In this document: positions 12,001-40,521 of the stretch, piece by piece | How positions within the stretch are numbered: position 1 is the first letter of the stretch | Layout: every line of letters starts with the position of its first letter | DNA from: an uncultured Coriobacteriia bacterium | GTDB lineage: Bacteria > Actinomycetota > Coriobacteriia > Coriobacteriales > QAMH01 | DNA length: 41,067 nucleotides | Direction of reading: 5' to 3' | NCBI GenBank assembly: GCA_949879855.1 | Contig: CATLBX010000003.1 | Coordinates: forward strand, 1-41,067 | Notes under the pieces: model-generated | Databases searched by the model: none | Seen by the model: the letters and a program-made list of their open reading frames with translations, nothing else | What the model was told of the DNA's origin: nothing | Translations under genes and position numbers: made by a program

Positions 12001-15000
12001 ACCGATGGCATGCTGACGAGCGGCATCTACGTCGCGCCCGACGGCACGCTCGTCCTCAAGCTCTACTACGTCGCCAAGAACCTGACGCTCACCTACGACC
12101 CGGGCGCCAACGGTTCCATCACCGCCGGTGGCAATCAGGGGACAGACCCCGTCGATGTCACGCATCGCGCCGACCACACCTTCAAGCTGCCCGCAGCCAC
12201 CGATGAGAAGCTCACCGTGAGCCGTCCGGGCTACGTGCTCAAGGGCTGGACGACGCTCATGAGCTACGGCGTCGCCGCCGATGGCAGCATCGTCTCGGCC
12301 GATACCGCCGGCGCCATCGTCAAGCTCATCGCCGACGCCAAGGGCGCCGAGGCCGAGGCCGTCATCGCCTGGCTCGAAAAGCTGGGGACAGACCCCCAGG
12401 GCCGTCCGTACTACTACCTCAACGGCGCGACCTTCCTCATGCCCACCGCCAACGAGACCCTGTACGCGGTCTGGACGCCGCGCTCCGACATCGTCTACAC
12501 CGTCGAGCACTGGCTCATCACCGGCGATGGCACCTTCTCGCCGCTGGACAAGAACGGCAACGTCATCCGCGACGCCAACGGCGCGCTCGTCACCGGCACG
12601 CCCAACACGAGCGCCGACGCCTCCGACACCACCAACGCGGCCTACCGCGTCACCTACAACAACGGCAAGTCCGACGTCGTCTTCGACCTCGACGCCATCG
12701 GCGGCTACACCCGCACGGTCGCCGGCTACACCTACCTGCTCAACAACGCGAGCTTCACCATCGCGGGCGCGACGGGCACCACCTACGCCGTGAAGACGAT
12801 CAGCGCCGACGGCAAGACGGTCTTCTACCTGTTCTACCGTGCCAACGAGAACACGATCCGCTTCGAGGTCGGTTCGCTCGGCACCATCGACGGCGGCACG
12901 CTCGACGCGACCGAGAACGTCAACTTCATCACGCAGAAGCACTACACCGACGACAGCTTCGACCTGGCAGATGTTCCCACCCCGACGCGTCCCGGCTACG
13001 ACTTCCTCGGCTGGACCATCGCCGACAAGAAGGGGACAGACCCCATCAACGACGCGATGGGCTACACCGCCCAGCAGATCGTCACCTGGCTCGAGGCCCA
13101 GAACGCGGGCAAGGGGACGTACCTCAAGCTTTTCTTCAAGTCGGGCACGAACTTCACCTACCTCACGCCGACCGGCGACATCATCCTGCGCGCCGTGTGG
13201 ACGCCGCAGCTCGTCGACTACACGATCAATCGCTGGAAGGTCACCGGTAACGGCGACAAGGTTGAGCTCGACTCCGTCACCTACAAGGGCTACGCCGACA
13301 CCGAGGTCCGCTTCGATGCCGCCAAGACCGAGTACAAGGACGGCATCACTTACCTCAAGGTCGACGTGCCCACGGGCTATCGCTTCCTGGCCGCGGGTAC
13401 GAGCGAGATCTACACCGGCACCAACAAGCTGACCCAGTCGTTCAGGACCGACGCCTACGGCAACGTCCTTCCCAACGGCACGGCGAAGTTCACGCTCTGG
13501 TACCTGCCGAAGACCTTCAAGCTCGAGCTCGAGCTCGGCACCTTGGGTACCTGGAACGACACCACGACGGGCACCAACACCGGCACGCTGAAGACCGTCG
13601 AGTATGACGCGGAGTCCGTCCACGAGATGCTCGGCTACCTCTCCGCGAGCCGTCCGGGCTATACCCTCGTTGGTTGGTCGTCCAGCGACTTCAGCGCGCT
13701 CAAGGGCGAGGCGTCGCAGGCCAAGTGGCTCGAACTCGCCGCCTCGGTTGTCGGCGCGGACTGGGTGCGCGTCACCACGGTCCTGAAGTCCGATGCCACG
13801 GGCACGTCGCTGACCGGCTACACCTACGCCTACATCGCCAACAGCTACGAGAACATCAAGTACATGTACACGATGGGTCTCGCGGGCGTGAAGTTCTACG
13901 CCGTGTGGCGCGCCAACGACGACACGGTCTACTACGTCGACCACGTCCGCTGGGAGGGCAACAGCACCGCCAAGACCACCATCACCGAAGAGTTCCGCGG
14001 CATGACCGACAAGAACTACACGGCCACCCCGTTCAACACCATGCTCGCCGATCCGCGCTTCAACACCAGCTTCACCGGCTACGGCTACAACGGCACGGAT
14101 CCCAAGCCCAGCACGGCCACGAAGGCGGTCACCGGCGACGGCACCATGCGCATCACGCTCAACTACTTCGCCCAGAAGCTCAACCTCACGCTCGAGTCCA
14201 CCGGCGGCACCTGGTCGACGACCTGGAATCCCGAGCACCTGACCGAGTCGAGCTTCAACCTGCCGACCAACGCCGACATCAAGCGCCCGGGCTACACGCT
14301 CGTGGGCTGGTCGACCACCAATCCCGACGATGGCCTGACTGGCAACATCAAGGGCCTCGCCTCGCAGGTCAAGGCCGGCCAGCTCGCGGCGATCACCGGC
14401 AACGACACCGCCAACGGCGGCGCCAACTGGATCACGGTCGCCACGACTTCCGACGGCAAGACCTACGTCTTCGTCACGCCGGGCTACAAGATGCCAACGA
14501 GGGGACAGACCCTGTACGCCGTCTGGTACGCCAACAACGACACGAAGTACGCGGTCGAGCGCTGGGTCGTCTCCGGTGACGGCGTCCGCTACGCCCTCAA
14601 GGCCGACGGCACGCTCGAGCGCGACGCCAACGGCCTGCTCGTGACCAGTGACAAGGCCGACAGCGCTCATTCGCTGAGCTACGTGGGCACCACCGACGAG
14701 GAGGCGTGGGCCGACGCCATCGACGGCTCCATCGTCTACCGCACGAACGACACCCTGCTCACCATCACCGGCTACGCCTATGCCGCCGATGGCGAGACGA
14801 TCGTCGCCAAGGACGGCGTCGTGACGATTGGGGGACAGACCCTCAAGACCGACGCCCGCGCGACCATCACCGGCGACGGCAAGATGACCCTCGTGCTCTA
14901 CTTCAAGCCGCTGCAGTTCACGCTCGACTTCTACATCGGCGCGACGAGCACGCCCAACCTGAGCGCCACGCCGGCGCGGGCCACGCTCTATGCCGACCAG

Positions 15001-18000
15001 ACCTACACGCTGCCCACCTCGACGGTGACGCGTAGCGGCTACACGCTCAAGGGCTGGACGAACAGCCAGTACGCGAGCGGTGTCGATGCGGCCACGATCA
15101 TCTCCGACCTCAAGGGCATCAAGTCCCAGAACGCCTACACGGCCGTGAGCGCCAGCACGGGCCGCGACGCCGTGACCGGCAAGGTCTTCACCGCCGTGAC
15201 AAGCGGGGGACAGACCCTCTACATCATGCCGACGGGCAACGTGACGCTCTACGCCACCTGGCGCGCCAACGACGACACGCAGTACCTCGTCGAGCGCTGG
15301 GTCGTCTCCGGCGATGGCACCCGCTATGCGGTCACCTCCGACGGCAAGCTCATCCGCGATACCAACGGCAAGCTCGTGACCAGCTCGACTGCCGATGCGA
15401 GCCACGTCGTCAAGCACGTGGGCATCACCGACGAGGAGGCCTGGGCCGACGCGAACGTGGCCGGAACGAGCTACCGCAACGACGATTCCGCGCTCACCTT
15501 CGCCGGCTACGCCTTCGCGGCCAACGGCGAGACGGTCATCGCCAAGGACGGCGCGACCGCCTTCACCACCATCGCCCGCAAGGTCATCACCGGCGACGGC
15601 AAGATGGTCCTCGTGCTGTACTACAAGCCCAAGCTCAACACCATCACCTTCAACTTCGGCAGCGGCACGAGCACCGGCGCGCCCGCGACGATGCAGGTCT
15701 ACACCGACCAGACCGTCGAGCTGTCCGCCGATGCCGAGCGCACGGGCTACGACCTGGTCGGCTGGTCCAACGTCTCGACCTACAGCGTGAAGGTCGACGG
15801 CGCCACCACGGCCACGACCGTCAACGTCGGCACCTCCAAGGGCCTGGCCTCCCAGGCCGCCGCCGACGCGGCCAAGGCCAATACCAAGCGCACCTCCGAC
15901 AAGGGCGCCGCCTTCACCGCCGTGACAATCGGGGGACAGACCCTCTACATCATGCCGACCGACGCGAGCATCACGCTCTACGCCACCTGGCGCGCCAAGT
16001 CCGACACCGTCTTCTACGTCGACCGCTACAAGGTCACCGGTGACGGCGTGGTCGTGCCCATCGACGCGAACGGCAAGGACCTCGCGGCCCTCGTCTCGCT
16101 GCGCTTCACCGGCGTCACCGACGAGACCGCCACCGCCGGCGCCAAGAGCGGCCCGAAGCCCTGGAACACCGCCGCCTACGGCACCCTGGCCGGCTACTAC
16201 ACGATCGCCAACGGCACGAGCGACCGCGTCATGCTCAAGGACGGCAGCGGCTACGTCGTCATGACCACCATCAGCGCCGGCGTCATCGCCGGTGACGGCA
16301 GTCTGCACCTCGTCGTCTACTACTTCCCGCTGGCAGACCGCGTCCTCGACCTCGACGTCGGCGACGGCACCTGGGAGCCCGGCAAGGAATCCCAGTACAG
16401 CGGCAACAAGCACGCCACCGAGTCGAGCTTCACGCTGCCCACCAACGCCGACGTCAAGCGCCCGGGCTACACGCTCGTGGGCTGGGCCATCGACAAGAAC
16501 GGCCTCATGGCCGCCGGAAAGGACACCGCCAAGGGCGCGGCGTCGCAGAAGTCCTACCTCACGCTCGCCGCCGGCAAGACCGGTTACATCGCCGATGGCG
16601 GCGCCGAGTGGATCGCCGTGATTTCCGGCTACGATGCGTCGACCTTCACCTACACCTTCATCGGCGCCGATGACGTCATCTACGTCATGCCCACGAACGC
16701 CAAGGTCATGCTGCGTGCCGTGTGGCGCGCCAACGACAACACGCCGTATTACGTGTCGCGTTGGGGCATCAACGGCGATGGCATCGCCTTCCCGTTCAAG
16801 CAGGACGGCACGGTCGACATGAACGGCGACCAGATCGTGATTCATGACGATCCTGCGTGGATCAAGGCCAACTACGTCGTCCACTACGGCATCACCGACG
16901 AGATTGCCTGGGCCGATGCGAACGTCGACGGCGTCTCCTATCGCAACGCCGACAACATCGAGGTGAACGGCTACAGGTACCTCCCGACCGACGATCCCGC
17001 GTTCGACTCGATCGGCGGCAGCCTCAACACGATGGCCCGCGCGGTCATCAAGGCCGATGGCAGCATGGTGCTCATGCTCTACTACAACGCCAAGGACAAC
17101 ATCACCTACTCCGTCTACCACGTGCGCGTCACCGGTGACGGCACGGTCAAGAACCTCGTCAAGCAGGAGTTCATGAAGAAGAACAACTCCTACGTCACCG
17201 TCGACAACCTCGATTACAACGGCCTCGACGACAGCCGCTTCCTCGGCTACGAGTACGTCGACTCCATCGTCATCAACGGCGTCACCTACTACTCGCATAT
17301 TGCCGGTAACGTCTACGACGGCCTCATCCTGTATCGCTACTACAAGGCCATCTACGACGAGGGTGACAAGGGCATCCACCTCGAGCTCAATCCCGGAATG
17401 GGCATCTGGGTGAACACCGGCGAGTCCACGCCGTCGATGATTCCCGGCACCTCGAACAGCTCGCACGACACCTTCGCCGCCGAGACCACGATCACGCTTC
17501 CGGGCGCCGACCAGCTCTATCGTCCCGGCTACGAGTTTGTCGGATGGTCCGACATGCCCGACGGTGCGGATGCGAAGGGCAACTACTCCGTGATCACGTC
17601 CGACCACCTGATGAGCGTCGATCCCGAGACGGGCCAGTACACCGATGTGCTGCGCGCCCTCATCATGAGCCTGCTCTCGCAGCGCATGGAGGATGCCGAG
17701 AACAGGGCGATCGAGGTCGATGGCGACAACCCGACCTACAAGTTCCTCGACCATCTCTACATCGCGCCCGACGGCAAGTTCCTCGTCCCGACCAAGACCA
17801 TCAGGCTCCACGCGATCTGGCGCGCCCGCACCGACACGAAGTACACGGTCAGCCATTGGTGGGTCGACCAGTACGGCGTGGCGCACGAGATCGAGGACAG
17901 CAGGCTCAACCTCGAGGGCATGACCGACGAGAACGTGTACGGCTCCAAGCTCGACGACAACCATGAGGCCGTCGCCGGTTACACGTACGTGAAGGAATAC

Positions 18001-19776: not shown

Positions 19777-19778
19777 GC

Positions 19779-19938
19779 GGGGGACAGACCCTCGGCAGGC
19801 GGGGGACAGACCCCCGCTTCGTCCGCCGGTGAAAGAATGGGGACAGACCCCCGATTGCCAGCTCCCATATCCGCCGGTGAAAGAATGGGGACAGACCCCC
19901 GCTTCGTCCGCCGGTGAAAGAATGGGGACAGACCCCCC
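19779..19938 (+). repeat. Cluster of 5 mini-hairpin elements immediately after the giant gene stop codon
   Basis: Cores are at 19779, 19801, 19839, 19887 and 19924. The last three share the composite unit ccgccggtgaaagaatGGGGACAGACCCCCgcttcg, with 48- and 37-nt spacing. Confidence 0.9.
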
Positions 19939-20000
19939 GCTTCGAATCTCCGCATCTGCCCCCATGGTTCGCCCAAGCCCGTGTCGTCACGAAGCGATGC

Positions 20001-29190: not shown

Positions 29191-29436
29191 TCGGATCGCC
29201 CCCCGATTGCCTCGTTCGCATTTAGACGCTTCTCACCATCCTCTCACCTGCGCGTTTGTCGCACATATCACATGCGTCATACTTTTTATACGATGGTTTC
29301 GCCTTCCCTCAGACGATATATTGAAACCGCAAGTAGGGGGTTGTGTCGATGCATCATGCGCACTGTGCCTCCCGCGGTCGCGGGGAGTCGCAATGCCGTC
29401 GCGCTGGCCATGCCCTTTATCAAAACGCCACTCTCC

Positions 29437-29448
29437 GGGGGGGGGGGG
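29437..29448. repeat. G12 homopolymer tract upstream of the LuxR-type regulator
   Basis: There are 12 consecutive G, 48 nt before ATG 29497. The tract is immediately followed by the inverted repeat TGCACT-cgc-AGTGCA (29449-29463). Confidence 0.95.
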
Positions 29449-29496
29449 TGCACTCGCAGTGCATGCAGTGCGCTGTGCGAGTCAAGGGGGCGTGTC

Positions 29497-31017
29497 ATGG
29501 GGGAAGTAGTACCAGAGCGGGAAGCCGAACAAACCGCGGAGCGCAAGCCAATCGGCGGCAACGAGGCGGATTTCGAGGCCGTCCTCATCGACGGCATACT
29601 CGGCTTCAGCCTTTCTTTCGGCAACGCCATTCTATTGCTGGTCGGGGCGGTGACGCATGCCGGCTCCTTCTTCGACTCCGCGCTCATCACCGTTATCGCC
29701 GCTCTCGTATCCGCGGCCTTCTTCAAGATCGTCCAGCTCAAGACCGATGCAATCTCCCGGCGCCTTCCGCGCGTCGCCTTCGTATGCTGTCACGCGGCGT
29801 GCTTCCTCGTCGCCATCGTCGGCATGTGCCTGGGGCTCCAGTACCTCATCGCCGTAGCCGCGGCGCTTGGCCTGGCCGACACCCTCATCCTCTACGGGCG
29901 ATTTCTCGCGGCACTCGCCCGCAAGGCCCTCATGCTCGTCGTGGATGCGGCCTTTCTGTATCCCGGCATCATGCTGATGGTCATAGTCAACGTGCCGTGG
30001 CCCTATGACACCGTCATCCTCTCGGCCATGGTGCTCGTCACGATCGTCGTCGCCCTCCTCTTCATCCGGCGGAACTATGACTTCGGCGAACTCATCAGCG
30101 CCGCCGATTCGAAGGCGCGCAGCATCAAGGTCAAGGGCAATGTCCATACGCTCTTCCTCGTCGGCTTCATGATCAGCGCGTTCCTGCTCTTCAACTCGCT
30201 GCCGTTTACCATGGAAATATCGAACACCGCGCTTGGCCTGGCCTTCGCGCTTGCGGGCATCGGATCGCTGCTCATGCGCCAAATCAACGAACGCGGCACG
30301 AAGGACGCGCTGCGCAAGACCATGGGACTCGTCTCCCTCGTCCTGCTCCTGCCGCTCATGCTCGTTCCCGGCGAGATACAGCTCGTGTTGCTCGCGTGCT
30401 ATAGCTGTTACGTCGTCCTCGAGACGCTGACCATACTCGACGCGATTGTCGAAACCGTCCGCTTCAACCTCATCGCGGCCATGTGGCTCATCGGCAAGGA
30501 ATGCTCGGTATTCTTTGGCGGTATAGCTGCTGGCGGGGCGATATTCGCGCTGTTTCCCTGGATCACCCGCGTGCTTGGCCCCGAATACGCCATGCTCATC
30601 CTGTGCATCGTGGTGGCCGCATTTTGCGCGTGGCTGCAGATTAAGGTCAACTACCAGGTCTACCCCTACGAACCCATCATCGAGGAGGAGGTTGACGAGG
30701 AGGTGACCGCTCGCATCGAGCGCAACGGTCGCCGCAAGGACCTCTGGCACCAGAAGATCGATGCCGCCTGCGAGCAATACCGCCTGTCACCTCGCGAACG
30801 CGAGATATTGCCCATCCTGTTGAGGGGCCGCGACGCCAAGTACATCATGGACACCTTCTACATCTCGCAATCCACGGCCAAGACGCATATATACAACATC
30901 TACCGCAAGTTCGGCATCCATTCGCGCCAGGAGCTTCTCGACTTCGTCGAGGATATCGAGTTCATGGAGTTCGAGATGCCCGACGAAGCGGAGCACTCAG
31001 ACGATTCCGCGCAATAA
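29497..31017 (+). CDS. Membrane-spanning LuxR-family transcriptional regulator
   Basis: ATG 29497 follows AAGGGGG. About 10 hydrophobic helices are followed by the C-terminal LuxR/GerE HTH: LSPREREILPILLRGRDAKYIMDTFYISQSTAKTHIYNIYRKFGIHSRQELLDFV. Confidence 0.8.
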   Translation: MGEVVPEREAEQTAERKPIGGNEADFEAVLIDGILGFSLSFGNAILLLVGAVTHAGSFFDSALITVIAALVSAAFFKIVQLKTDAISRRLPRVAFVCCHAACFLVAIVGMCLGLQYLIAVAAALGLADTLILYGRFLAALARKALMLVVDAAFLYPGIMLMVIVNVPWPYDTVILSAMVLVTIVVALLFIRRNYDFGELISAADSKARSIKVKGNVHTLFLVGFMISAFLLFNSLPFTMEISNTALGLAFALAGIGSLLMRQINERGTKDALRKTMGLVSLVLLLPLMLVPGEIQLVLLACYSCYVVLETLTILDAIVETVRFNLIAAMWLIGKECSVFFGGIAAGGAIFALFPWITRVLGPEYAMLILCIVVAAFCAWLQIKVNYQVYPYEPIIEEEVDEEVTARIERNGRRKDLWHQKIDAACEQYRLSPREREILPILLRGRDAKYIMDTFYISQSTAKTHIYNIYRKFGIHSRQELLDFVEDIEFMEFEMPDEAEHSDDSAQ

Positions 31018-31267: not shown

Positions 31268-31618
31268 TCGCCCGTCATCGATCCTCCCATCGTCCCCCTC
31301 GCCGCCAGCCTTCGCGTTTCGGGATGAGCGCGACGACCAGAGGGGCTGAACGCGCCCCGACGCTTCCAAAACGGCTGCCCGCGAGCCCTCATACCTGAAG
31401 TTCCATGCTCTGAGCAGGGCATTCGAAACCCACTCACAAAATTTCCACATTTGCGGCCAATTCTCGACTCCGAATAATCCCCGGACAATGAAACCCAAGG
31501 ACACGTGCGCTCGCGCGCATGCGCCCCATCCCCGGGTTGTGCGGTCCGGGGCCGCCGGCGCTCTGGAGAGGACGCCGGTTGGGGAGGGAATGTGATATTC
31601 GATGAAAGAGGAGGAGTT

Positions 31619-32857
31619 ATGTCTGATAAAGCACTGGACAAGTCCAAGTGTATAGACGGAAGCTACGGCTGGGTAGTCGTGCTGTTCACCATGTTGGTCG
31701 GCTTCGTGCCCGGCTCCAACATGGCGAAGGCGATTTCGCTCGCGCCAATCGTCTGCATGAACTTCCAGATCAACGAGGCCACGTTCGGCCTGATCGTCGC
31801 GTCTTTCTACATTATGGGCTTCATCATGGCGTTCCCCACCACGGGCCTCGTCAACAAGCTCGGCATGAAGGGTTCCGTCGCTATTGCCGTCGGCTGCGGC
31901 ATCATTGGCTCCATCATGGGTGCCATGGCCGGCACGAACCTCACGGTCTTCGTCATCAGCCGCGTCGTCGAGGGTGCATCCTTCGGCATCATGGGCGTCG
32001 TGGGCGCATCGTCCATCGGCCCCTGGTTCTCGCCCAAGAAGCGCTCGCTCCCGCTGTCCATCTGGTCCATGTGGGTCGCCGTCTGCATGTGCGTCTGCCC
32101 GATTCTCTTTGGCTGGCTCAACGAGTCCATGGGCGTTGACATGGCGGGCATCTGGTGGGGCACCGCCGTGTACGACCTCGTCGTCGGCATCCTGTTCATC
32201 CTGTTCTACCGTCGTCCGGCCGACCTCGACGCCGTCGAGAACGCCGAGGATCCCACCGGCACCAAGAAGGCGAGCATCTCGCGCGCCCTCAAGAGCCCGA
32301 TGCTCTGGGCACTCGCCCTCATCTTCCTGTTCGACGAGGCCGCCTTCATGGCCATCAACGGCTTCATCGTCCAGTACCTCACCACGCAGCTTGATGCGTC
32401 GCTCGTCCTGGCAAACGCCATCTTCTCGCTGTTCGGCCTCATGGGCGCTCTGACGCCGCCCATCTCCGGTTGGATCACGCAGAAGTGGAACAACCACCGC
32501 TGGGTGCTGCTCGTCGGCCTCTTCATAGCGGTCATCTACACGGCCCTGGTCTTCCAGCTGCAAGACCCGATGCTGTACTACCCGCTGTCCATCCTCGCCG
32601 GCATCGTCGGCGGCGCGGTCCCGTCCATCATCTGGCAGTTCACGCCCAACACCGTCGAGGACGCCGACATTCCGGCGGCCAACGCCTTCATGGCGTTCAC
32701 CCAGAACATCGGCATGACGATCGGTGCCCTCATCATCGGCAACGCCATCGTCATGTGGGGTTGGGGCATGGGTTCGCTCATCGGCATGGTGCCGTTGTAC
32801 ATCATCTGCCTCATCATCTACTTCGCCTTCGGCGTTCAGAAGAAGCTCAAGCTCTAG
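31619..32857 (+). CDS. MFS transporter
   Basis: ATG 31619 follows GAGGAGGAG. The 412-aa protein has about 12 hydrophobic helices. The longer ORF start at 31505 lacks an RBS and is Arg/Gly-rich. Confidence 0.8.
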   Translation: MSDKALDKSKCIDGSYGWVVVLFTMLVGFVPGSNMAKAISLAPIVCMNFQINEATFGLIVASFYIMGFIMAFPTTGLVNKLGMKGSVAIAVGCGIIGSIMGAMAGTNLTVFVISRVVEGASFGIMGVVGASSIGPWFSPKKRSLPLSIWSMWVAVCMCVCPILFGWLNESMGVDMAGIWWGTAVYDLVVGILFILFYRRPADLDAVENAEDPTGTKKASISRALKSPMLWALALIFLFDEAAFMAINGFIVQYLTTQLDASLVLANAIFSLFGLMGALTPPISGWITQKWNNHRWVLLVGLFIAVIYTALVFQLQDPMLYYPLSILAGIVGGAVPSIIWQFTPNTVEDADIPAANAFMAFTQNIGMTIGALIIGNAIVMWGWGMGSLIGMVPLYIICLIIYFAFGVQKKLKL

Positions 32858-32872
32858 CCGCTTCGCGCACGA

Positions 32873-32920
32873 AGGATGCGTCGTCTTTCATGGCGGCGCA
32901 TCCTCGCGCGCGTTCTTTTG
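32873..32920 (+). terminator. Candidate rho-independent terminator after the MFS gene
   Basis: The stem AGGATGCG (32873-32880) pairs with CGCATCCT (32897-32904) and can be extended inward with G-U pairs. It is followed by gcgcgcgTTCTTTT. Confidence 0.5.
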
Positions 32921-33237
32921 CCCTTTGCGCGACGTGAACGGGGACTTGAAAACCGTCGTGTAAATCCCAAGGTCACAGGCACTTTTTCCTGTGCCGTCAG
33001 ACGCGAGGTACGAGGGTATTTTGCGAGGGGTCCACGATTTCCGCACCTGTGTACGATTCTCAACTCGCGCACCTGAGCCCTAGTTTGTACGTGCCGCAAT
33101 CCCTCGGCGGCACCGAAATGTCTCGAGTTCGTATTCCTCGAGTTGACATGAGCATTCGGCTCAAAGGGACGTCTTCCTCGCACAACGGCATGTCGCCGTG
33201 GAAGAACGCCCCGGCTCTTTTGAAAGGAGAGGCGCGT

Positions 33238-33450
33238 ATGTGTTTCAGACCCGCAAGTTTCGAGTCCGAAGGTGACAACCCCTATTTCGTTCCCGGCGAA
33301 GAAGATGCTGGCGTACCTGGCGCTCCCGGAGCACCGGGCGCACCTGGAGCCCCTGGCGCTCCCGGCGCACCTGTAGCCCCCGGCGCACCTGCCGCACCGG
33401 GCGCACCTGCTGCTCCCGGCGCCCCGTCCGCACCGGGCCAGCCGTCCTAA
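33238..33450 (+). CDS. Candidate 70-aa micro-protein with a collagen-like (G/x)AP triplet repeat
   Basis: ATG 33238 lies 5-6 nt after AAAGGAGAGG. The sequence is MCFRPASFESEGDNPYFVPGEEDAGVP(GAP)6 VAP GAP AAP GAP AAP GAP SAP GQPS. The identical aa triplets use varied synonymous codons. The gene lies 108 nt upstream of the molybdoenzyme gene. Confidence 0.45.
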   Translation: MCFRPASFESEGDNPYFVPGEEDAGVPGAPGAPGAPGAPGAPGAPVAPGAPAAPGAPAAPGAPSAPGQPS

Positions 33451-33558
33451 AGCCAGGGCAAGGTGCCGGTTCGCGCCGGCGGGAGTGTCCTTGCCAGACG
33501 ACTGGATCACGAACGCAAAGTGCAATGCAGGTTGAGAGAGAAGAGGAAAGGAAAGAGC

Positions 33559-35898
33559 ATGAAGATTTTCAAAGGTCAGGGCACTGCCGATCTTGGCAAG
33601 CCATGGCGCTTCGAAGAAGACGGCCTCACCGTCACCCGTGGCTGCGCATGGTCTCCCCCGGGATGCCACCCCACCGGATGCGGCATCAAGACCTATGTGA
33701 ATTCCAACGGCGAGCTCGTGCGCGTCGAAGGTGACGAGAACCATCCCATCACCAACGGCCGCCTCTGCGTCCGCTGCCTGACCATCCGCGATTACGTCTA
33801 TAACCCCGACCGTGTGCTCTACCCCATGAAGCGCGCCCGCGAGGACCGTGGCAAGAACAAGTGGGAGCGCATCACCTGGGACGAGGCCTACGACACCATC
33901 GCCGAGAAGGTCAAGTACTTCAAGGACAAGTACGGTGCCGAGTCCATCCTGGTCATGGGTGGCACCGGCCGCGAGGGTGGCCCCATGCTTCCGGCCTACG
34001 CCCATGCATGCCTGGGTACTCCCAACGCCTGCTACACGCAGTCCGGCTACTCCTGCTACATCCCGCGCGTCGCGGGTACCACCTACGTCATGGGCGCCAC
34101 CTATCCCGAGATGGACTACGCGGGCGGCCTACCCGGACGCTATGACGACCCGATGTTCAAGCTTCCCGAGCTCATCGTCTTCTGGGGCAAGGAGCCCCTG
34201 CCGTCCAATGGCGACGGTCTGTTCGGCCACGCTGCCATCGACATGATGCGCCGCGGCTCCAAGCTCATGTCCATCGACCCGCGCGTCAACTGGGTATCGA
34301 CCCGCGCCGACTGGCATCTGCGCCTGCGTCCCGGCACCGACGCCGCCCTCGGCATGGCCATGCTCAACGTGATCATCGAGGAGGACCTCTACGACCACGA
34401 CTTCGTGGACAAGTGGTGCTACGGCTTCGACCAGCTCGCCGAGCGCGTCAAGACCATGCCCGCCGAGAAGGCCGCCGAGATCTGCGGTCTCGACGCCGGT
34501 GAGATCCGCGAGGCCGCCCGCGTCTACGCCGCGGCCAAGCCCGCCCAGATCGCCTGGGGTCTGGCCATCGACCAGAAGTCCAACGGCGTCCAGGCCGGTC
34601 ACTGCATCATGGCCCTCGAGGCCATCACGGGCAACATCGACGTGCCTGGCGGCCAGCTCATCGGTGACGTCAACGACGGTCTCGAGCTCGGCTTCGGCTG
34701 GAACAACCTCGGCCCGGAGCTCCAGAGCAAGATCCTCGGCATCAAGGAGTACCCGGCCTACGTCGGCCTCGTCCTCAACGCGCAGTGCGACATGGTGCTC
34801 GACGCGCTCGAGGCGGGCGACGACGCCAAGTACTACCCGTTCAAGATGGGCGTCTTCGAGGACACGAACTTCCTGGCCGGCACCTGCGCCGCCCAGCCCA
34901 AGCGCTGGCATGACGCCATGGTCAAGAACCTCGAGTGGTGCTTCGGTATCGACGTGTGGATGACCCCGACGATTCAGGCCACCTGCGAGATCTTCCTCCC
35001 GCTGTCCTCGACCGTCGAGCATGACACCGTCGTGTACACGCACTATGGTGCCTCGCCGATCATGGCCGGTGCCGTCAACAAGTCCATCACCGTGGGCGAT
35101 TGCAAGGGCGACTGCGAGATCTTCTACGAGCTCGGCCTGCGCTGCATGCCCATCAACTTCGAGAAGTACAAGGACTACTACGACTTCCTGGCCGACTATC
35201 GCCTCGCCTACAAGAGGACCTTCGAGGAGCTACGCGAGGAGGTCGTGCACCAGAAGACCGAGATGTGCGGTTACTACAAGTACGAGTCCGGCCGCCTGCG
35301 TCCCGACGGCATGCCCGGCTTCAACACGCCCACCGGCCGCGTCGAGCTCTACTCGACGATGTTCCGCCAGTTCGGCGAGGATCCGCTGCCGTACTACGAG
35401 GAGCCGCAGTTCTCGCCGGTCTCCACACCCGACAAGATGGAGGAGTATCCCTTCGTCCTCACCACGGGTGCCCGCACCTACTGCTACTTCCATTCCGAGG
35501 GCAAGCAGATTCCGTACCTGCGCGAGATGAACCCCGATCCGCTGATCGAGATCAATCCCGAGGACGCCCTCAAGCACGGCATCGCCGACGGCCAGTGGGT
35601 CGAGGTCGCGAGCCCGTTTGGCAAGTGTGTCCTCAAGGCCAAGGTCTCCCAGATCGTGAAGCCGGGCGTCGTGCACGCGCAGCACGGCTTCTGGTTCCCC
35701 GAGAAGGATCCCGAGGAGCCCAGCCTGTACGAGGTGTGGCGTTCCAACATCAACGAGCGTATCCCGCACTTCATGGTGGGCAAGCTCGGATTCGGCGCGC
35801 CGTTCAAGTGCCTCATCTGCAGCGTGAAGCCGGTGTCGGAGAACTACGACACCGACATGATGGAGGTTTGGGACCACTTCGGAAAGTTGGTGATCTAG
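33559..35898 (+). CDS. Molybdopterin (bis-MGD) oxidoreductase catalytic subunit, acetylene-hydratase-like clade, no signal peptide
   Basis: ATG 33559 follows GAGGAAAGGAAAGAG. The N-terminal 4-Cys FS0 motif is C-x6-C-x4-C-x28-C (GCAWSPPGCHPTGCG...GRLCVRC). MGD-binding blocks are present: GGTGREGG, IDPRVNW and LRPGTDAAL. A C-terminal molydop-binding block reads PFVLTTGAR..YFHSE. There is no RR twin-arginine motif. Confidence 0.85.
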   Translation: MKIFKGQGTADLGKPWRFEEDGLTVTRGCAWSPPGCHPTGCGIKTYVNSNGELVRVEGDENHPITNGRLCVRCLTIRDYVYNPDRVLYPMKRAREDRGKNKWERITWDEAYDTIAEKVKYFKDKYGAESILVMGGTGREGGPMLPAYAHACLGTPNACYTQSGYSCYIPRVAGTTYVMGATYPEMDYAGGLPGRYDDPMFKLPELIVFWGKEPLPSNGDGLFGHAAIDMMRRGSKLMSIDPRVNWVSTRADWHLRLRPGTDAALGMAMLNVIIEEDLYDHDFVDKWCYGFDQLAERVKTMPAEKAAEICGLDAGEIREAARVYAAAKPAQIAWGLAIDQKSNGVQAGHCIMALEAITGNIDVPGGQLIGDVNDGLELGFGWNNLGPELQSKILGIKEYPAYVGLVLNAQCDMVLDALEAGDDAKYYPFKMGVFEDTNFLAGTCAAQPKRWHDAMVKNLEWCFGIDVWMTPTIQATCEIFLPLSSTVEHDTVVYTHYGASPIMAGAVNKSITVGDCKGDCEIFYELGLRCMPINFEKYKDYYDFLADYRLAYKRTFEELREEVVHQKTEMCGYYKYESGRLRPDGMPGFNTPTGRVELYSTMFRQFGEDPLPYYEEPQFSPVSTPDKMEEYPFVLTTGARTYCYFHSEGKQIPYLREMNPDPLIEINPEDALKHGIADGQWVEVASPFGKCVLKAKVSQIVKPGVVHAQHGFWFPEKDPEEPSLYEVWRSNINERIPHFMVGKLGFGAPFKCLICSVKPVSENYDTDMMEVWDHFGKLVI

Positions 35899-36246
35899 AT
35901 GACGGCCTACGGTCTGCTTATCGATTACGAGTTCTGCACGGGCTGCCAGTCTTGCGAGGTCGCGTGCAAGGAGATTCACAACATCCCCGTGGGGCAGTGG
36001 GGCATCCGCGTGCTTGACGATGGTCCCTGGGAGTGCTCGGACGGCAAGTTCAACTGGAACAAGATTCCGACCCCGACGCGCCTGTGCGACCTGTGCGTCG
36101 AGCGCACGGACAAGGGCCAGCAGCCCTTCTGCGTGCATCACTGCCTGGCCGGCGTCATGCAGTGGGGCACGGTCGAGGACCTTGCCAAGGAGCTCGAGGA
36201 GAAGCCCAACCAGGTGCTTTTCGTGCCCAAGCCCTACCAGTACTAG
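35899..36246 (+). CDS. 4Fe-4S ferredoxin-type small subunit
   Basis: The ATG abuts the upstream stop (TAGATG). The protein carries CTGCQSCEVAC plus CDLC...CVHHC cysteine clusters. It is 115 aa long. Confidence 0.8.
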   Translation: MTAYGLLIDYEFCTGCQSCEVACKEIHNIPVGQWGIRVLDDGPWECSDGKFNWNKIPTPTRLCDLCVERTDKGQQPFCVHHCLAGVMQWGTVEDLAKELEEKPNQVLFVPKPYQY

Positions 36247-36287
36247 CGGGAAGACGGCGTCTCGACCGAGGCGCGCGGGTGACAGGC

Positions 36288-36412
36288 GGGGGACAGACCC
36301 TCACGCATCACGAACGACGCGGTTGGCAAGAAGGGGACAGACCCTTTCACGAGAAAGCGGGGGACAGACCCCTTCGCGCCAACCGCAGGTGAGAAAGAGG
36401 GGACAGACCCCC
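36288..36412 (+). repeat. Cluster of 4 forward mini-hairpin elements
   Basis: Cores are at 36288, 36333, 36359 and 36399. Confidence 0.9.
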
Positions 36413-36449
36413 GCGCGTCATCCGCGAAGCGAGCGAGGATGGAATTTCG

Positions 36450-37157
36450 ATGGACCAGCAGGCTCTGATGCAGCAAACCGAAGACAGGTGCGATAACTAC
36501 GCGATGCTCTCGCGCCTGTTCAGAAGCGAGCTCGACCGCGAGCTCATCGCCGATCTCGTCGAAAGCCCGGCCGCCGAGCCGACGGGCAACACGCACTTCG
36601 ACTCGGGCTACGCACGCCTCCGCTCGTACCTTGACGCCGTCGACGACCTTGATCGTGCCAAGTCGGCGCTAGCGATCGACTACTGCCTCGCGTTCCTCGG
36701 CTACGGGGTCGACCCCGAGAAGGCGGACGAGGCCGGCAGGAATGCCGCCTATCCGTACGAGTCGATCTACCGTACGGGCGCCAAGTCGCTCGGCGGCGAC
36801 CACTGCGCCGAGGTGTCCGACGTGTTCCGCTCCTGCATGTTCATGCCCACCCGCGACCGACTCATCGCCGAGGACCACATCGCGTGCGAGCTCGAGTTCA
36901 TGCAGTTCATGGCCAACGGCGAGCTCGTCGCCCTGCACGATGGCGAACTTGCGGTCGTGCGCGGGACGCAGAAGAAGGAGCTCGAGTTTCTCGAGGGCCA
37001 TCTGCTCGCGTGGGCGGAGAGCTTCAGGCAGGCGGTGGAGCAGTTCGCCGAGACGGACTTCTACGTCGGCTTGCTCGAGATGACGCAGGGCTGGCTTGAA
37101 CTGGACGCGGAGTACCTGCGCGAGGCATGCGCGGAAGAAGGGGAGGATGCATCATGA
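36450..37157 (+). CDS. TorD/DmsD/NarJ-family molybdoenzyme maturation chaperone
   Basis: Family hallmarks are present: YAMLSRLFRSELD near the N-terminus, and the AEDHIACELEFMQFM block (E.DH...ELEFM). Confidence 0.75.
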   Translation: MDQQALMQQTEDRCDNYAMLSRLFRSELDRELIADLVESPAAEPTGNTHFDSGYARLRSYLDAVDDLDRAKSALAIDYCLAFLGYGVDPEKADEAGRNAAYPYESIYRTGAKSLGGDHCAEVSDVFRSCMFMPTRDRLIAEDHIACELEFMQFMANGELVALHDGELAVVRGTQKKELEFLEGHLLAWAESFRQAVEQFAETDFYVGLLEMTQGWLELDAEYLREACAEEGEDAS

Positions 37158-37474
37158 CGACCGATCACGGCCCGGACGGGCGTAACTGGAACAAGAACGA
37201 GGTCGAGTATGACCTTGGCGTCGCCGGTCCCGGCCAGAGCATCGTCATCACCATCACCCGTTCCGTCGCGGTCAAGATCATGGACCACGACAGCTACGAG
37301 CTCTACAAGGCGGGCGAGGACTGCAAGGCCTTTTCAGGCCAGCTCACCTCGTCACCGTACCGGTTCAAGCTGCCGCGCGAGGCACGATGGCACGTGATCA
37401 TCAACCCCCACACCTATTCGGGCACCGCCGAATTCAACGTCCGTCTCATTGACGACGAGGTGCTCGACGGCTAG
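37154..37474 (+). CDS. DUF1883-like small protein
   Basis: The start overlaps the chaperone stop (ATGA at 37154-37157) and is preceded by GGGAGGA. The pattern YDLG..G.G..V.I......V.IMD...Y..YK.G....F.G....SPY.F.LP....WHVII matches my memory of DUF1883. Confidence 0.65.
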   Translation: MTTDHGPDGRNWNKNEVEYDLGVAGPGQSIVITITRSVAVKIMDHDSYELYKAGEDCKAFSGQLTSSPYRFKLPREARWHVIINPHTYSGTAEFNVRLIDDEVLDG

Positions 37475-37484
37475 GGGACGAAGC

Positions 37485-37570
37485 GGGGGACGGACCCTCG
37501 ATCACCGTCGGTGACAAAGAGGGGACAGACCCCCATCGATCGCCGCCGGTGACAAGCAGGGGACAGACCC
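37485..37570 (+). repeat. One degenerate and two intact forward mini-hairpin elements
   Basis: GGGGGACGGACCC at 37485 is degenerate. ggtgacaaagaGGGGACAGACCCCC is at 37521 and ccgccggtgacaagcaGGGGACAGACCC is at 37559. Confidence 0.85.
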
Positions 37571-37660
37571 TCGGCTTGGACCCTTGATTTGCAATTTGGT
37601 TCGTACGGCGCGGCCACGAGGAAAGGCCGGGCCGTTAAGAAGGAGAAGGAGAGTGAAGCA

Positions 37661-40027
37661 ATGGAGTTAAGTGATTACAAGCCAGCTCCAGTAGTGAAGC
37701 TGGACAGCCTTTCCGACGTCAACGACATCGGAAAGCCCTGGCGCTACGAGGACGGCGACTACACCGTCACCCGCACCTGCCCGTGGTCACCCCCGGGATG
37801 CCATCCGGTAGGTTGCGGTCTCAAGCTCTACGTCAACGAGGACGGTAGGCTCGAGCACGTCGAGGGCGACGAGAACCATCCCGTCACCCAGGGTCGCCTG
37901 TGCCCGAGGTGCATCACGCTGAAGGACTACGTCTACAGCCCCGCCCGCATCCTCACCCCGATGAAGCGCGACCGTGCCGAGCGCGGCAACGCCGACGCCT
38001 GGGAGGAGTGCTCCTGGGACGAGGCGTTCGCCATCATCAAGGAGAACTACGAGCGCATCGTCGACCAGTACGGCCCCGAGTCCATCATCGGCATGTCCGG
38101 CACCGGCCGCGAGGGCGGTACCATGTCGCTGTATCCCACCATGGTCTTCGGCACGCCCAACTACTGCTACATGCAGTCCGGTTACGCCTGCTACACCCCG
38201 CGCCTGGCGGCAGCCGCCTACATCACCGGCTCCACCTACTCCGAGTGGGACTACGCCGGCGCCCTGCCCGATCGCTGGGATGACGAGCGCTACACCCTGA
38301 CCGAGGTTCTGGTCATGTGGGGCAAGGCTCCGCTCGAGTCCAACCCCGACGGCTTCTTCGGCCATGCGGTCGTCGACGCCATGCGCCGCGGCACGCGCCT
38401 CATCCAGATCGACCCGCGCGTCAACTGGCTGTCCGCCCGCGCCGACATCTTCATCCAGCTGCGCGCCGGCACGGACACCGCCCTGGCCATGGCCATGCTC
38501 GACATCATCATCAAGGAAGACCTCTACGACCACGAGTTCGTCGAGTACTGGTGCTACGGCTTCGAGCAGCTCGCCGAGCGCGTCGCCACGATGCCCGCCG
38601 AGAAGGCCGCCGAGATCTGCCAGGTTCCCGTCGAGAAGATCTACGCCGCGGCCCGCATGTACGCGAAGGCCAAGCCGGCTGCCATCATGTGGGGTCTGGC
38701 CGTCGACCAGAAGACCGACGGTATGCAGAACAGCCAGTGCATCATCGCGCTGCAGGCCATCACCGGCAACTTCGACCGCCCGGGCGGCCAGCTCGTCCCC
38801 GGTGCCGACGCCGGCCACAACGAGCTCGGCTTCGGCTACAAAGAGTGCATCCCCGACGAGCTCTTCCAGAAGATGATCGGCATGGACCAGTACCCCGCGT
38901 ACTGCAACATGATCCTCAACTCGCAGGTCGACCTCATGCTCGAGTGCCTCGAGACCGACAAGCCCTATCCCATCCGCATGGGCTTCTACATGGCCTCCAA
39001 CCCGCTGTCGAACACCTCGATGGAGCCCAAGCGCTGGCACGACGCCCTGTGCAAGTCGCTGGAGTTCTGCATTGGCATCGACCTGTTCATGAACGCCTCC
39101 ATCCAGGCCACCTGCGACATCTTCCTGCCGATCGCGACCACCGCCGAGCGCGAGGGCACCGTGTTCACGCACTACGCGCCCTGCACGGTCACGGCCGGCT
39201 TCATGCACAAGGCCATCGACTGTGGCGGTCTGCCCTCCGACATGGAGCTCGCCTATCGCCTGGGCAAGTACCTGCATCCGGAGCGCTTCTCCAAGTGGGC
39301 TAACGAGCACGAGCTCGTCGAGGCCTTCCGTCTCGGTGTCGAGAACCACGGCGAGACCTTCGACGAGGTCTCCAAGTGCGTCGTCGCCCAGGTGCCCATC
39401 GAGTACTACAAGTACGAGAAGGGCCTGCTGCGCCAGGACGGCCAGGTTGGCTTCGCCACCCCGACGGGCCGCGTCGAGCTGTGGTCGACCGCCTACAACC
39501 AGTTTGGCGAGGACCCGCTGCCGTTCTACCTCGAGCCCGAGTTCAGCCCGGTCTCCAAGCCGGAGCTCGCCGACGAGTATCCGCTCATCCTCACGACCGG
39601 CGCGCGCACCACGGCGTTCTTCCATTCCGAGAACCGCCAGATTCCCTACACGCGCGAGCTCAATCCCGATCCGCTGCTCGAGATCAACCCCAAGACCGCG
39701 CAGGAGAAGGGCATTGCCGACGGCCAGTGGGTGCGTGTCTGGAACATGTTCGGCGAAGCGCTCATGAAGGCCAAGGTCACCGATGCCGTGGACGAGAAGA
39801 CCGTCCATGGTCAGCACGGCTGGTGGTTCCCCGAGGAGGACGGCAGCGAGCCGAACCTCTACGGCACCTTCCGTTCGCAGATCAACAACCTGTGTCCCAA
39901 CGGCCACATGGGCAAGCTCGGATTCGGCGCTCCCAACAAGTGCCTGATCTGCAACGTCGAGCCTGTGAGCGAGTCGTATGACACCGACATGAATCTCATC
40001 TGGGACAAATTCGGAAAGCTGGTGTAG
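37661..40027 (+). CDS. Second molybdopterin (bis-MGD) oxidoreductase catalytic subunit, paralog of 33559-35898, no signal peptide
   Basis: ATG 37661 follows AAGGAGAAGGAGAG. It has the same FS0 motif (TCPWSPPGCHPVGCG...GRLCPRC) and is collinear with the first enzyme throughout. Identity is roughly 55-65% by eye. Confidence 0.85.
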   Translation: MELSDYKPAPVVKLDSLSDVNDIGKPWRYEDGDYTVTRTCPWSPPGCHPVGCGLKLYVNEDGRLEHVEGDENHPVTQGRLCPRCITLKDYVYSPARILTPMKRDRAERGNADAWEECSWDEAFAIIKENYERIVDQYGPESIIGMSGTGREGGTMSLYPTMVFGTPNYCYMQSGYACYTPRLAAAAYITGSTYSEWDYAGALPDRWDDERYTLTEVLVMWGKAPLESNPDGFFGHAVVDAMRRGTRLIQIDPRVNWLSARADIFIQLRAGTDTALAMAMLDIIIKEDLYDHEFVEYWCYGFEQLAERVATMPAEKAAEICQVPVEKIYAAARMYAKAKPAAIMWGLAVDQKTDGMQNSQCIIALQAITGNFDRPGGQLVPGADAGHNELGFGYKECIPDELFQKMIGMDQYPAYCNMILNSQVDLMLECLETDKPYPIRMGFYMASNPLSNTSMEPKRWHDALCKSLEFCIGIDLFMNASIQATCDIFLPIATTAEREGTVFTHYAPCTVTAGFMHKAIDCGGLPSDMELAYRLGKYLHPERFSKWANEHELVEAFRLGVENHGETFDEVSKCVVAQVPIEYYKYEKGLLRQDGQVGFATPTGRVELWSTAYNQFGEDPLPFYLEPEFSPVSKPELADEYPLILTTGARTTAFFHSENRQIPYTRELNPDPLLEINPKTAQEKGIADGQWVRVWNMFGEALMKAKVTDAVDEKTVHGQHGWWFPEEDGSEPNLYGTFRSQINNLCPNGHMGKLGFGAPNKCLICNVEPVSESYDTDMNLIWDKFGKLV

Positions 40028-40029
40028 AT

Positions 40030-40521
40030 ATGGCAACCTACGGACTTCTTATCGATTACGAGTACTGCACGAACTGCGGTTCCTGCCAGGTCTCCTGCAA
40101 GGAGGAGCATGGCTACCCGGTAGGCAAGACGGGCATCGCCGTCCATGCCGACGGCCCGTGGTACATCGACGATGACAACATCAACTTCAACTACTTCCCC
40201 CTGCCGACAGACCTGTGCGACCTGTGCAAGGACCGCACCGAGCGTGGCCGCGAGCCCATTTGCGTGCATCACTGCCTCGCCAACATCCTGTACTACGGCA
40301 CGGTCGAGGAGCTCTCCAAGAAGCTCGAGGAGAAGCCGAAGCAGATGCTCATCGTCCCGCAGTACATGCCGCGCGTGGCCAGGGGCGAGTTCGTCCACCA
40401 GGAGAACGCGACGGACCTGCACAAGGCCGCTGCCATGGACGTCAAGGGCACGGGCGCCTCGACCTTCGGTGCGCACCGCGCTGACGCCAAGGTCGGCGAG
40501 TACGAGGAGGATGCCGTCTAG
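40030..40521 (+). CDS. 4Fe-4S ferredoxin-type small subunit, paralog of 35899-36246 with a C-terminal extension
   Basis: It carries CTNCGSCQVSC plus CDLC...CVHHC. At 163 aa it is longer than the 115-aa paralog. Confidence 0.8.
   Translation: MATYGLLIDYEYCTNCGSCQVSCKEEHGYPVGKTGIAVHADGPWYIDDDNINFNYFPLPTDLCDLCKDRTERGREPICVHHCLANILYYGTVEELSKKLEEKPKQMLIVPQYMPRVARGEFVHQENATDLHKAAAMDVKGTGASTFGAHRADAKVGEYEEDAV

Follow-up and report, generated by a model that had tools for sequence, protein, structure and literature searches.

A probable ribbon-less member of an undescribed MCFRP small-protein family, encoded upstream of a soluble molybdoenzyme operon in an uncultured Coriobacteriia bacterium

Introduction

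In gut Coriobacteriia, catechols from the diet and from the host are acted on by soluble molybdoenzymes of the catechol-dehydroxylase type. Among the closest described systems are the Dodh/Cldh-type catechol dehydroxylases of Gordonibacter, which the relevant passages of the main text describe as closest to acetylene hydratase, without a signal for twin-arginine translocation (Tat), smaller and probably soluble, paired with a small 4Fe-4S protein and adjoining major facilitator superfamily (MFS) transporters (PMC7028382, eLife 2020). Those main-text passages mention no small gene, and neither 'hypothetical protein' nor 'small subunit' appears anywhere in that paper's main text. A second point of reference is HypC, whose conserved N-terminal Cys2 is essential and carries cofactor intermediates, according to the parts of PMC10847431 that deal with this residue. 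Here we analyze a 41,067-nucleotide (nt) stretch of DNA from an uncultured Coriobacteriia bacterium (assembly GCA_949879855.1, contig CATLBX010000003.1; hereafter the window), in which a very short open reading frame (the micro-ORF) precedes an operon for a soluble, acetylene-hydratase-like molybdoenzyme. The micro-ORF probably encodes a member of a family of small proteins that begin with Met-Cys-Phe-Arg-Pro (the MCFRP family) and whose genes, in several subtypes, adjoin such enzyme operons.

Results

Conservation of the micro-ORF among same-genus genomes

The preliminary description of the window had called for comparing the frame and its repeat length upstream of orthologous enzymes. With a 601-nt query around the micro-ORF, the orthologous locus was found in eight other same-genus genomes at 69–95% DNA identity. 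The frame was intact from the same ATG in 9/9 loci, with no frameshift seen (the G012 copy ends at a contig edge). The start, the Shine–Dalgarno sequence and the stop were conserved, and the Shine–Dalgarno block TCTTTTGAAAGGAGAG was identical in 9/9 genomes. The first 19 residues were invariant; the 57 nt encoding them contained nine variable sites, each at codon position 3 and synonymous. Orthologues were 62–70 amino acids (aa) long, and every length difference was a multiple of 3 nt and kept the frame. An antisense ORF across the repeat, 52–54 aa in several genomes, was considered and rejected, as the antisense frame sharing the wobble positions gains a TAG stop wherever the sense Tyr codon is TAT, in 8/9 genomes. 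The 19 invariant residues, the exclusively synonymous variation, the in-frame lengths and the antisense TAG stops together show that purifying selection acts on the peptide as read in the + frame; selection on the peptide had been one of two options, the other being selection against slippage, raised earlier from the mixed codons of the repeat.

Neither the window peptide nor any of its seven complete orthologues had an exact match in a collection of 15 billion proteins, in which a protein of subtype B (see below) was present. Gene callers seem to miss the micro-ORF, plausibly because of its low complexity and its low GC content at third codon positions (GC3), and the locus provides an example of how ORFs of this kind escape annotation. 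We conclude with high confidence that the micro-ORF is a real gene; the comparison of genomes effectively excludes that a GC-rich repeat is open here by chance.

The MCFRP small-protein family

Short matches elsewhere in the DNA search led to a family of small ORFs that start with MCFRP, continue with a CxxC...CxxC zinc ribbon and have an (xAP)n tail, for which KAPGA, KAPGM or KAPGQ is a frequent ending. A degenerate DNA pattern for M-C-F-R-P matched 93 places in 31/33 genomes of the bacterial family to which the window belongs, compared to 16 places in the 33 genomes for the reversed control pattern, 13 of which lay in a single genome (G005). The concentration of control matches in this complete same-genus genome, against 0–1 elsewhere, suggests a dispersed repeat containing the reversed word. 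At the protein level, a search with one ribbon-bearing member returned 389 proteins at E ≤ 1e-3 among 8,000 candidates scored. Among the 120 matches listed, 118 start exactly with MCFRP and the other two hold the motif after a probably miscalled start, while two CxxC motifs are present in 116 and at least two consecutive xAP triplets in 115. The six listed matches that name a taxon are each a 'hypothetical protein', from Coriobacteriia, Coriobacteriales or Eggerthellaceae.

The nearest database relatives of the window peptide, P0121 (51% identity) and P0133 (40%), share the architecture MCFRPA, ribbon, SPYFVPG, tail and PGQ, with PYFVPG after the zinc ribbon. Alignment to this architecture suggests that the window protein is the same arrangement with the ribbon removed, so that its lineage would have lost the ribbon and kept the other modules. 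At least two other ribbon-less forms occur (L065 and L166). We define the family by an MCFRP[A/P]-x-hydrophobic-acidic start, usually a C4 zinc ribbon, sometimes PYFVPG, and an (xAP)n tail often ending K-A-P-G-[A/M/Q]. The micro-ORF encodes the start (MCFRPA, 33238–33255) and a C-terminal tail of 13 strict triplets, and it adjoins a soluble acetylene-hydratase-like molybdoenzyme operon, a feature that holds for subtypes B–E and not for A or H; the C4 ribbon is absent, Cys2 being the sole cysteine. Its membership in the MCFRP family is accordingly very likely in our judgment.

No Pfam or NCBIfam family reached its cut-off for the window peptide. Of 12 relatives scanned against the same two databases, only L073 reached a cut-off, with the generic families Zn_Ribbon_1 and DUF7575. 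A sequence search of the PDB with a ribbon-bearing relative gave nothing beyond low-complexity or generic zinc-ribbon matches, and the ESM Atlas returned generic clusters named 'zinc-ribbon domain-containing protein'. No curated model describes the family, and none of the papers found in full-text literature searches, judged by title or abstract, does so. The MCFRP family is undescribed and of generic build, a zinc ribbon plus a disordered tail, and the window copy is an apparently uncalled ribbon-less variant of it.

Association of MCFRP genes with soluble molybdoenzymes

Eighty loci around MCFRP pattern matches in the bacterial family of the window were collected, and homologues of the window proteins were located in them by tblastn. 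Genes of subtype B (MCFRPPSFDDMMKKC...) lie 174–422 nt upstream of a 787-aa molybdoenzyme gene plus an iron–sulfur (Fe-S) gene on the same strand in 11/11 loci, the arrangement seen in the window. Subtype C is found ~456 nt downstream of a 745-aa molybdoenzyme gene (6/6 loci), and subtype E has an Fe-S gene on one side and a further molybdoenzyme gene on the other. The window genome carries a second MCFRP gene of its own, which is of subtype D (C32:4323-4574) and follows genes for an 892-aa molybdoenzyme and a 266-aa Fe-S protein. Subtype A has a different setting, ~390 nt upstream of a gene for a 580–620-aa MFS transporter, in a conserved neighborhood that also holds genes read from their translations as valS and larB-like. 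Subtype A genes also adjoin a divergent gene for an apparent membrane protein of ~110–140 aa (L070:4281-4604(-), L089:3565-3924(-) and equivalents), an arrangement that genera across the same bacterial family share.

The association extends to another bacterial family. In a genome of that family with 23 pattern matches (G105), 18/20 tail-bearing MCFRP ORFs lie ≤2.5 kb from a molybdoenzyme homologue (same strand in 17 cases), compared to a chance expectation of ~15%, an estimate based on 69 PF00384 matches over 3.3 Mb. The specific neighborhoods of subtypes B, C, D and E recur in both bacterial families.

The presence of the family was also compared between whole genomes. Five molybdoenzyme-rich genomes of the other bacterial family, with 26–41 Molydop_binding matches each, were examined. 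Only G088 had MCFRP pattern matches (8), and close relatives of the enzyme in the window were likewise confined to it, with 5 at E ≤ 1e-100. The remaining four (G097, G111, G090 and G127), two of which share the genus of G088, had 0 pattern matches and 0 window-enzyme homologues at this threshold. In the bacterial family of the window, the MCFRP pattern is missing from two genomes, G013 (74% complete) and G018 (90% complete), and these are also the two that lack the enzyme clade. This joint presence and absence indicates that the MCFRP family follows the soluble acetylene-hydratase-like clade and not molybdoenzymes in general.

Sequence and predicted structure of the micro-ORF product

A 70-codon ORF with a strong Shine–Dalgarno sequence upstream of a molybdoenzyme gene had been reported in the preliminary description, and both the ORF and its ribosome-binding sequence AGGAGAGG were confirmed (Table 1). 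The 70-aa product consists of MCFRPASFESEGDNPYFVPGEEDAG followed by a proline-periodic tail. Where 15 consecutive x-A-P triplets had been counted, we find 13 strict ones (residues 28–66), and the number reaches 15 only as x-x-P, with GVP before and GQP after. Six exact GAP had been noted; there are nine in all, with an uninterrupted run of six. In 4/13 triplets the Gly position is taken by V, A, A and S. The earlier label 'collagen-like' did not hold up: Collagen (PF01391) was rejected at a Pfam score of 23.4 bits against a cut-off of 27.2, Gly-X-Y being interrupted in those four triplets so that Gly is not at every third residue.

Tandem Repeats Finder reported arrays of period 9, 18 and 36 at 33308–33438 with matches of only 70–78% between units; the copies have therefore diverged at the DNA level. 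The mixture of synonymous codons noted earlier was borne out by the counts (Gly, GGC 9 and GGA 2; Ala, GCA 7, GCT 4 and GCC 4; Pro, CCT 6, CCG 5 and CCC 4), as was the low GC3, which at 0.53 is far below the 0.80–0.91 of six neighboring genes, 0.84 of tuf and 0.89 of groEL. Low GC3 is common to the MCFRP family: across 74 ORFs the median is 0.63, and the median share of Ala codons that end in A or T is 57%. A G-A-P repeat written in the preferred codons of the genome would read GGC-GCC-CCG. Because GGCGCC is its own reverse complement, the simplest explanation of the codon choice would be that A/T-ending codons keep the repeat from self-pairing and slippage.

The micro-ORF protein is net acidic, and its peptide has no hydrophobic signal segment. 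It lacks Lys altogether and has a single Arg, at position 4. The AlphaFold2 model has a mean predicted local distance difference test score (pLDDT) of 62 and a predicted template modeling score (pTM) of 0.16. A single four-residue helix is the only secondary structure; the tail has none, at pLDDT 60–79. The protein is thus predicted to be intrinsically disordered.

Table 1 Features of the window and related MCFRP proteins
Feature	Position	Strand	Description
LuxR-type regulator	29272-31017	+	581 aa; C-terminal LuxR-type (GerE) DNA-binding domain, Pfam GerE, residues 505-558
MFS transporter	31505-32857	+	upstream of micro-ORF; Pfam MFS_1, E 2.4e-43
Conserved upstream block	33030-33065	+	GTCCACGATTTCCGCACC TGTGTACGATTCTCAACT; 36 nt, ~200 nt upstream of micro-ORF
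Shine–Dalgarno sequence of micro-ORF	33225-33232	+	AGGAGAGG; ends 5 nt before ATG
Micro-ORF	33238-33450	+	ATG 33238, TAA 33448-33450; 70 codons plus TAA; probable ribbon-less MCFRP-family small protein
Codons for N-terminal MCFRP motif (Cys2)	33238-33252	+	exact start in 118 of the 120 homologues listed
Codons for PYFVPG motif	33280-33297	+	invariant in orthologues, except Ser replacing the final Gly in G001
(xAP)13 repeat	33319-33435	+	low-complexity proline-rich tail; extended to x-x-P x15 over 33310-33444
GC-rich nested hairpin	33457-33495	+	between micro-ORF and enzyme gene; -24.4 kcal/mol (33448-33505)
Purine-rich leader and ribosome-binding site of molybdoenzyme gene	33530-33558	+	GGTTGAGAGAGAAGAGGAAAGGAAAGAGC; identical in all 8 orthologues reaching it
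Soluble molybdoenzyme catalytic subunit	33559-35898	+	779 aa; bis-molybdopterin guanine dinucleotide (bis-MGD) type; Pfam Molybdop_Fe4S4, Molybdopterin, Molydop_binding
Small 4Fe-4S partner subunit	35899-36246	+	115 aa; Pfam Fer4_11, Fer4_2
Maturation chaperone	36450-37157	+	TorD/NarJ type; Pfam Nitrate_red_del, E 1.9e-18
Second molybdoenzyme gene	37589-40027		in window cluster, Pfam scan
Second Fe-S gene	40030-40521		in window cluster, Pfam scan
130-aa MCFRP proteins	L105:5001-5390, L112:5001-5399, L112:5613-6014		tandem paralogue without the motif, starting MPLFKR

The hairpin and conserved flanking blocks

The hairpin described earlier between the micro-ORF and the enzyme gene does exist, starting 6 nt after the micro-ORF stop, but it is no more stable than its composition predicts (z = -1.15, with 31/200 dinucleotide shuffles folding at least as well), and it has no U tract. 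A stem-loop is found 0–6 nt after the stop in all eight orthologues, with four different sequences in four lineages, and such lineage-specific stem-loops at one place hint at selection for structure. Across the MCFRP family, hairpins after the stop have a median z of -0.5 and reach z < -2 in 9/55 cases, so they are not a family feature. A terminator scan gave one site, at 32865–32881, as many as expected by chance, and did not pick up the hairpin; a sigma-70 promoter scan gave 0 sites, and Rfam gave 0 matches over 32800–33700 at E ≤ 1. The hairpin may be a U-less terminator or a stabilizer and so determine how much small protein is made relative to the enzyme. Its identity as a copy of a repetitive extragenic palindromic (REP) or REP-associated tyrosine transposase (RAYT)-associated repeat was rejected, as a short-word blastn search of 33451–33500 against the assembly matched only itself, apart from chance matches of ≤17 nt. 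The heptamer of the outer hairpin arm, GGCAAGG, occurs 1,028 times on both strands of the assembly (G000), ~2.5 times a composition-based estimate, which may reflect coding bias (GGC-AAG-G..).

Two further noncoding elements are conserved. The 70 nt before the purine-rich leader of the enzyme gene vary freely, and the conservation of the leader itself exceeds the needs of a ribosome-binding site. The upstream block is nearly invariant in the nine-genome alignment, with diverging flanks, and has no other copy in the genome at up to eight mismatches. It is a candidate operator or promoter region of the operon, and as an operator it could serve the neighboring LuxR-type regulator. GTACGA-like words were seen by eye near the block at ~33009, 33052 and 33088.

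The gene cluster of the window

The micro-ORF ends 108 nt before the gene for the 779-aa enzyme, which among proteins of solved structure is closest to acetylene hydratase (2e7z, E 1.3e-83) and by eye has no Tat-like N-terminus. The cluster matches the description of Dodh/Cldh-type catechol dehydroxylases given in the passages cited above. In the N-terminal part of the 581-aa regulator, candidate membrane spans were noted on reading the sequence by eye. The orthologous array in G005 (C1:392660-405258) is headed by the micro-ORF and contains four tandem soluble molybdoenzyme paralogues, whose identities to the enzyme of the window are 100, 57, 83 and 70%. The contig of the window ends inside such an array, of which 33559–40521 is the part present and the rest is perhaps on contig C39 of the same assembly. 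At the other end, positions 1–19776 (+) form an open frame of 6,591 codons that continues past the contig's 5′ end and is overlapped by opposite-strand frames at 1–11871 and 11881–19965.

Discussion

We tentatively favor a role of the micro-ORF protein as a trans-acting partner of the soluble molybdoenzyme system, a reading to which we give slightly less than an even chance. In this reading the protein would help the enzyme system in trans, whether as an accessory, a maturation factor or a tether; by analogy with HypC, its Cys2-bearing N-terminal decapeptide could be the docking or ligand-bearing end, and its polyproline-II-like tail could serve as a spacer. Of the three roles offered in the preliminary description (regulatory leader peptide, secreted or modified peptide, and partner of the enzyme), the last fits best because the relatives are tied to soluble molybdoenzyme genes at the level of both loci and genomes. 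Several observations weigh against this role. The locus counts include paralogues and kin that share gene order by descent and are not independent events. Subtype A, the most widespread and most conserved subtype in the bacterial family of the window (usually one copy per genome), has a molybdoenzyme gene within 2.5 kb in 0/25 loci. By crude gene calls, the next downstream gene is co-directional in 56/64 cases and the previous gene in 40/70, which fits an operon member and also a first gene or a leader. The zinc ribbon present in 116 of the 120 relatives listed is missing from the window version, which could therefore be a degenerating copy. Finally, a family of 130-aa globular alpha+beta proteins encoded near eno and ftsX likewise starts with MCFRP and has no tail; it has no Pfam family and no Foldseek match in the PDB at E ≤ 0.001 (best 0.25), and its model is mediocre (pLDDT 66, pTM 0.54). 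Because both this family and subtype A begin with the motif, MCFRP[A/P]-x-hydrophobic-acidic is a portable N-terminal module that is not exclusive to molybdoenzyme partners.

A real small protein could instead serve something else, as a co-factor of the LuxR-type regulator, a partner of the MFS transporter or a general stress or adaptor protein that travels with substrate-inducible operons by shared regulation. The MFS link of subtype A, an MCFRP gene lying between two MFS genes in L084, the position of the window ORF between MFS and enzyme genes with the LuxR-type regulator gene upstream, and LuxR-type genes ≤2.5 kb from 4/11 subtype B loci searched are all in line with such a function. We nevertheless consider it unlikely, if worth keeping in view, since co-occurrence across genomes is specifically with the soluble enzyme clade, and many loci show tight adjacency to an enzyme or Fe-S gene, with gaps of 76–456 nt. 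Less probable again is a cis-acting leader, in which translation up to the stop before the hairpin would govern whether the enzyme mRNA is terminated, how stable it is or how well it is translated, and the peptide would have no role in trans. The strong Shine–Dalgarno sequence 108 nt upstream of the enzyme gene, the post-stop stem-loops that persist with differing sequences in four lineages, the use of rare A/T-ending codons and the mostly co-directional next gene at a median gap of ~160 nt would suit a leader. A leader attenuator, however, implies an ORF that always precedes the regulated gene and in which only the stalling site matters, whereas the 19 N-terminal residues are invariant under synonymous change and subtypes C, D and E sit after enzyme or Fe-S genes. 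The same motif also heads zinc-ribbon or 130-aa-domain proteins, most relatives carrying a folded zinc ribbon. The hairpin is no more stable than shuffled sequence and has no U tract, no search for an alternative (anti-terminator) pairing having been made; hairpins after the stop are not typical of the family, and Rfam has no match. The earlier suggestion of a regulatory leader peptide is weak for these reasons.

Secretion or post-translational modification, whether as a product resembling ribosomally synthesized and post-translationally modified peptides or as a collagen-like surface peptide, is very improbable. The short, repeat-rich sequence with a conserved 'leader-like' N-terminus and single cysteine might invite this idea, as might the weak Pfam Collagen match (E 5e-5). 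That match is below its cut-off and lacks the regular Gly, however, the signal segment is absent, and a Pfam scan of seven neighbors, namely the regulator, the MFS transporter, both molybdoenzymes, both Fe-S proteins and the chaperone, revealed no peptide-modifying, protease or peptide-export domain, which leaves this second suggestion of the preliminary description weak as well. The reading that we rate lowest, and regard as barely credible, is that there is no gene but a non-coding 9-bp tandem repeat, open by chance in a GC-rich genome. A period-9 array, an opposite strand that is open across the repeat too, the atypical GC3 and the lack of an exact protein copy in the large collection are in its favor. 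It is countered by the synonymous nature of all nine variable sites, by the conserved ATG, Shine–Dalgarno sequence and stop, by in-frame indels and by a non-repeat N-terminus common to hundreds of proteins.

Returning to the trans-acting partner, a conserved small gene tied to an enzyme clade across two bacterial families offers a concrete, testable answer to what may still be missing in how these enzymes mature, receive electrons, are tethered or are regulated. A more specific version, which we regard as a long shot, is that MCFRP is a portable 'Cys2 tag' marking a novel group of factors that escort cytoplasmic bis-MGD molybdoenzymes or help them mature. By analogy, Met1 would be removed, the exposed cysteine would either enter into a covalent link or serve as carrier or ligand of a metal, a cofactor intermediate or an Fe-S cluster, and the tail would hold the enzyme near a transporter or electron donor. 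If this were true, what is lacking for the production of active soluble catechol dehydroxylases in other hosts would be co-expression of the cognate MCFRP protein.

Comparison with known systems

The HypC/HybG/HupF chaperones resemble the micro-ORF protein in being small, in being encoded with a large metalloenzyme and in having specialized paralogues beside specific enzymes. The N-terminal consensus of HypC has Cys2, with a Pro a few residues on. The Cys2 of the micro-ORF protein, invariant in its orthologues, and its MCFRP start recall this consensus, and any shared mechanism would be by analogy only. The micro-ORF protein differs in being apparently disordered and not folded, and it belongs with a different enzyme class. 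Membership in HypC/HupF was rejected, as the AlphaFold2 model has no fold and HupF_HypC is absent among the Pfam matches listed for the window peptide (E ≤ 0.001), for relatives (E ≤ 1; for two of six, the best 25 of more than 40 families) and for others (E ≤ 0.01).

Bacterial collagen-like proteins and XPZ-type regions, such as that of the streptococcal beta C protein, share with the window peptide a Pro at every third residue, to which its six-GAP run may be compared. Unlike them, the window peptide has only 70 aa and no signal peptide or anchoring domain, and both matches are far below cut-off, that to the proline-periodic region NF038253 scoring 16.1 bits against a cut-off of 1,700 bits.

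The operons of the Gordonibacter Dodh/Cldh enzymes, in the main-text passages describing them, agree with the window in that the acetylene-hydratase-like catalytic subunit is Tat-less and ~780 aa long, has a small 4Fe-4S protein as partner and is encoded next to an MFS transporter; unlike in the window, a small upstream gene is not mentioned in those passages. The closest likeness is within the MCFRP family itself. The window peptide differs from its relatives in having no CxxC...CxxC zinc ribbon, no tail lysines and a net acidic character. With subtype B, P0121 and P0133, it shares the MCFRP[A/P] start, PYFVPG, the (xAP)n tail, a C-terminal end similar to ...APGQ and a strong Shine–Dalgarno sequence, and with subtype B also the position directly upstream of genes for a soluble molybdoenzyme and a small Fe-S protein.

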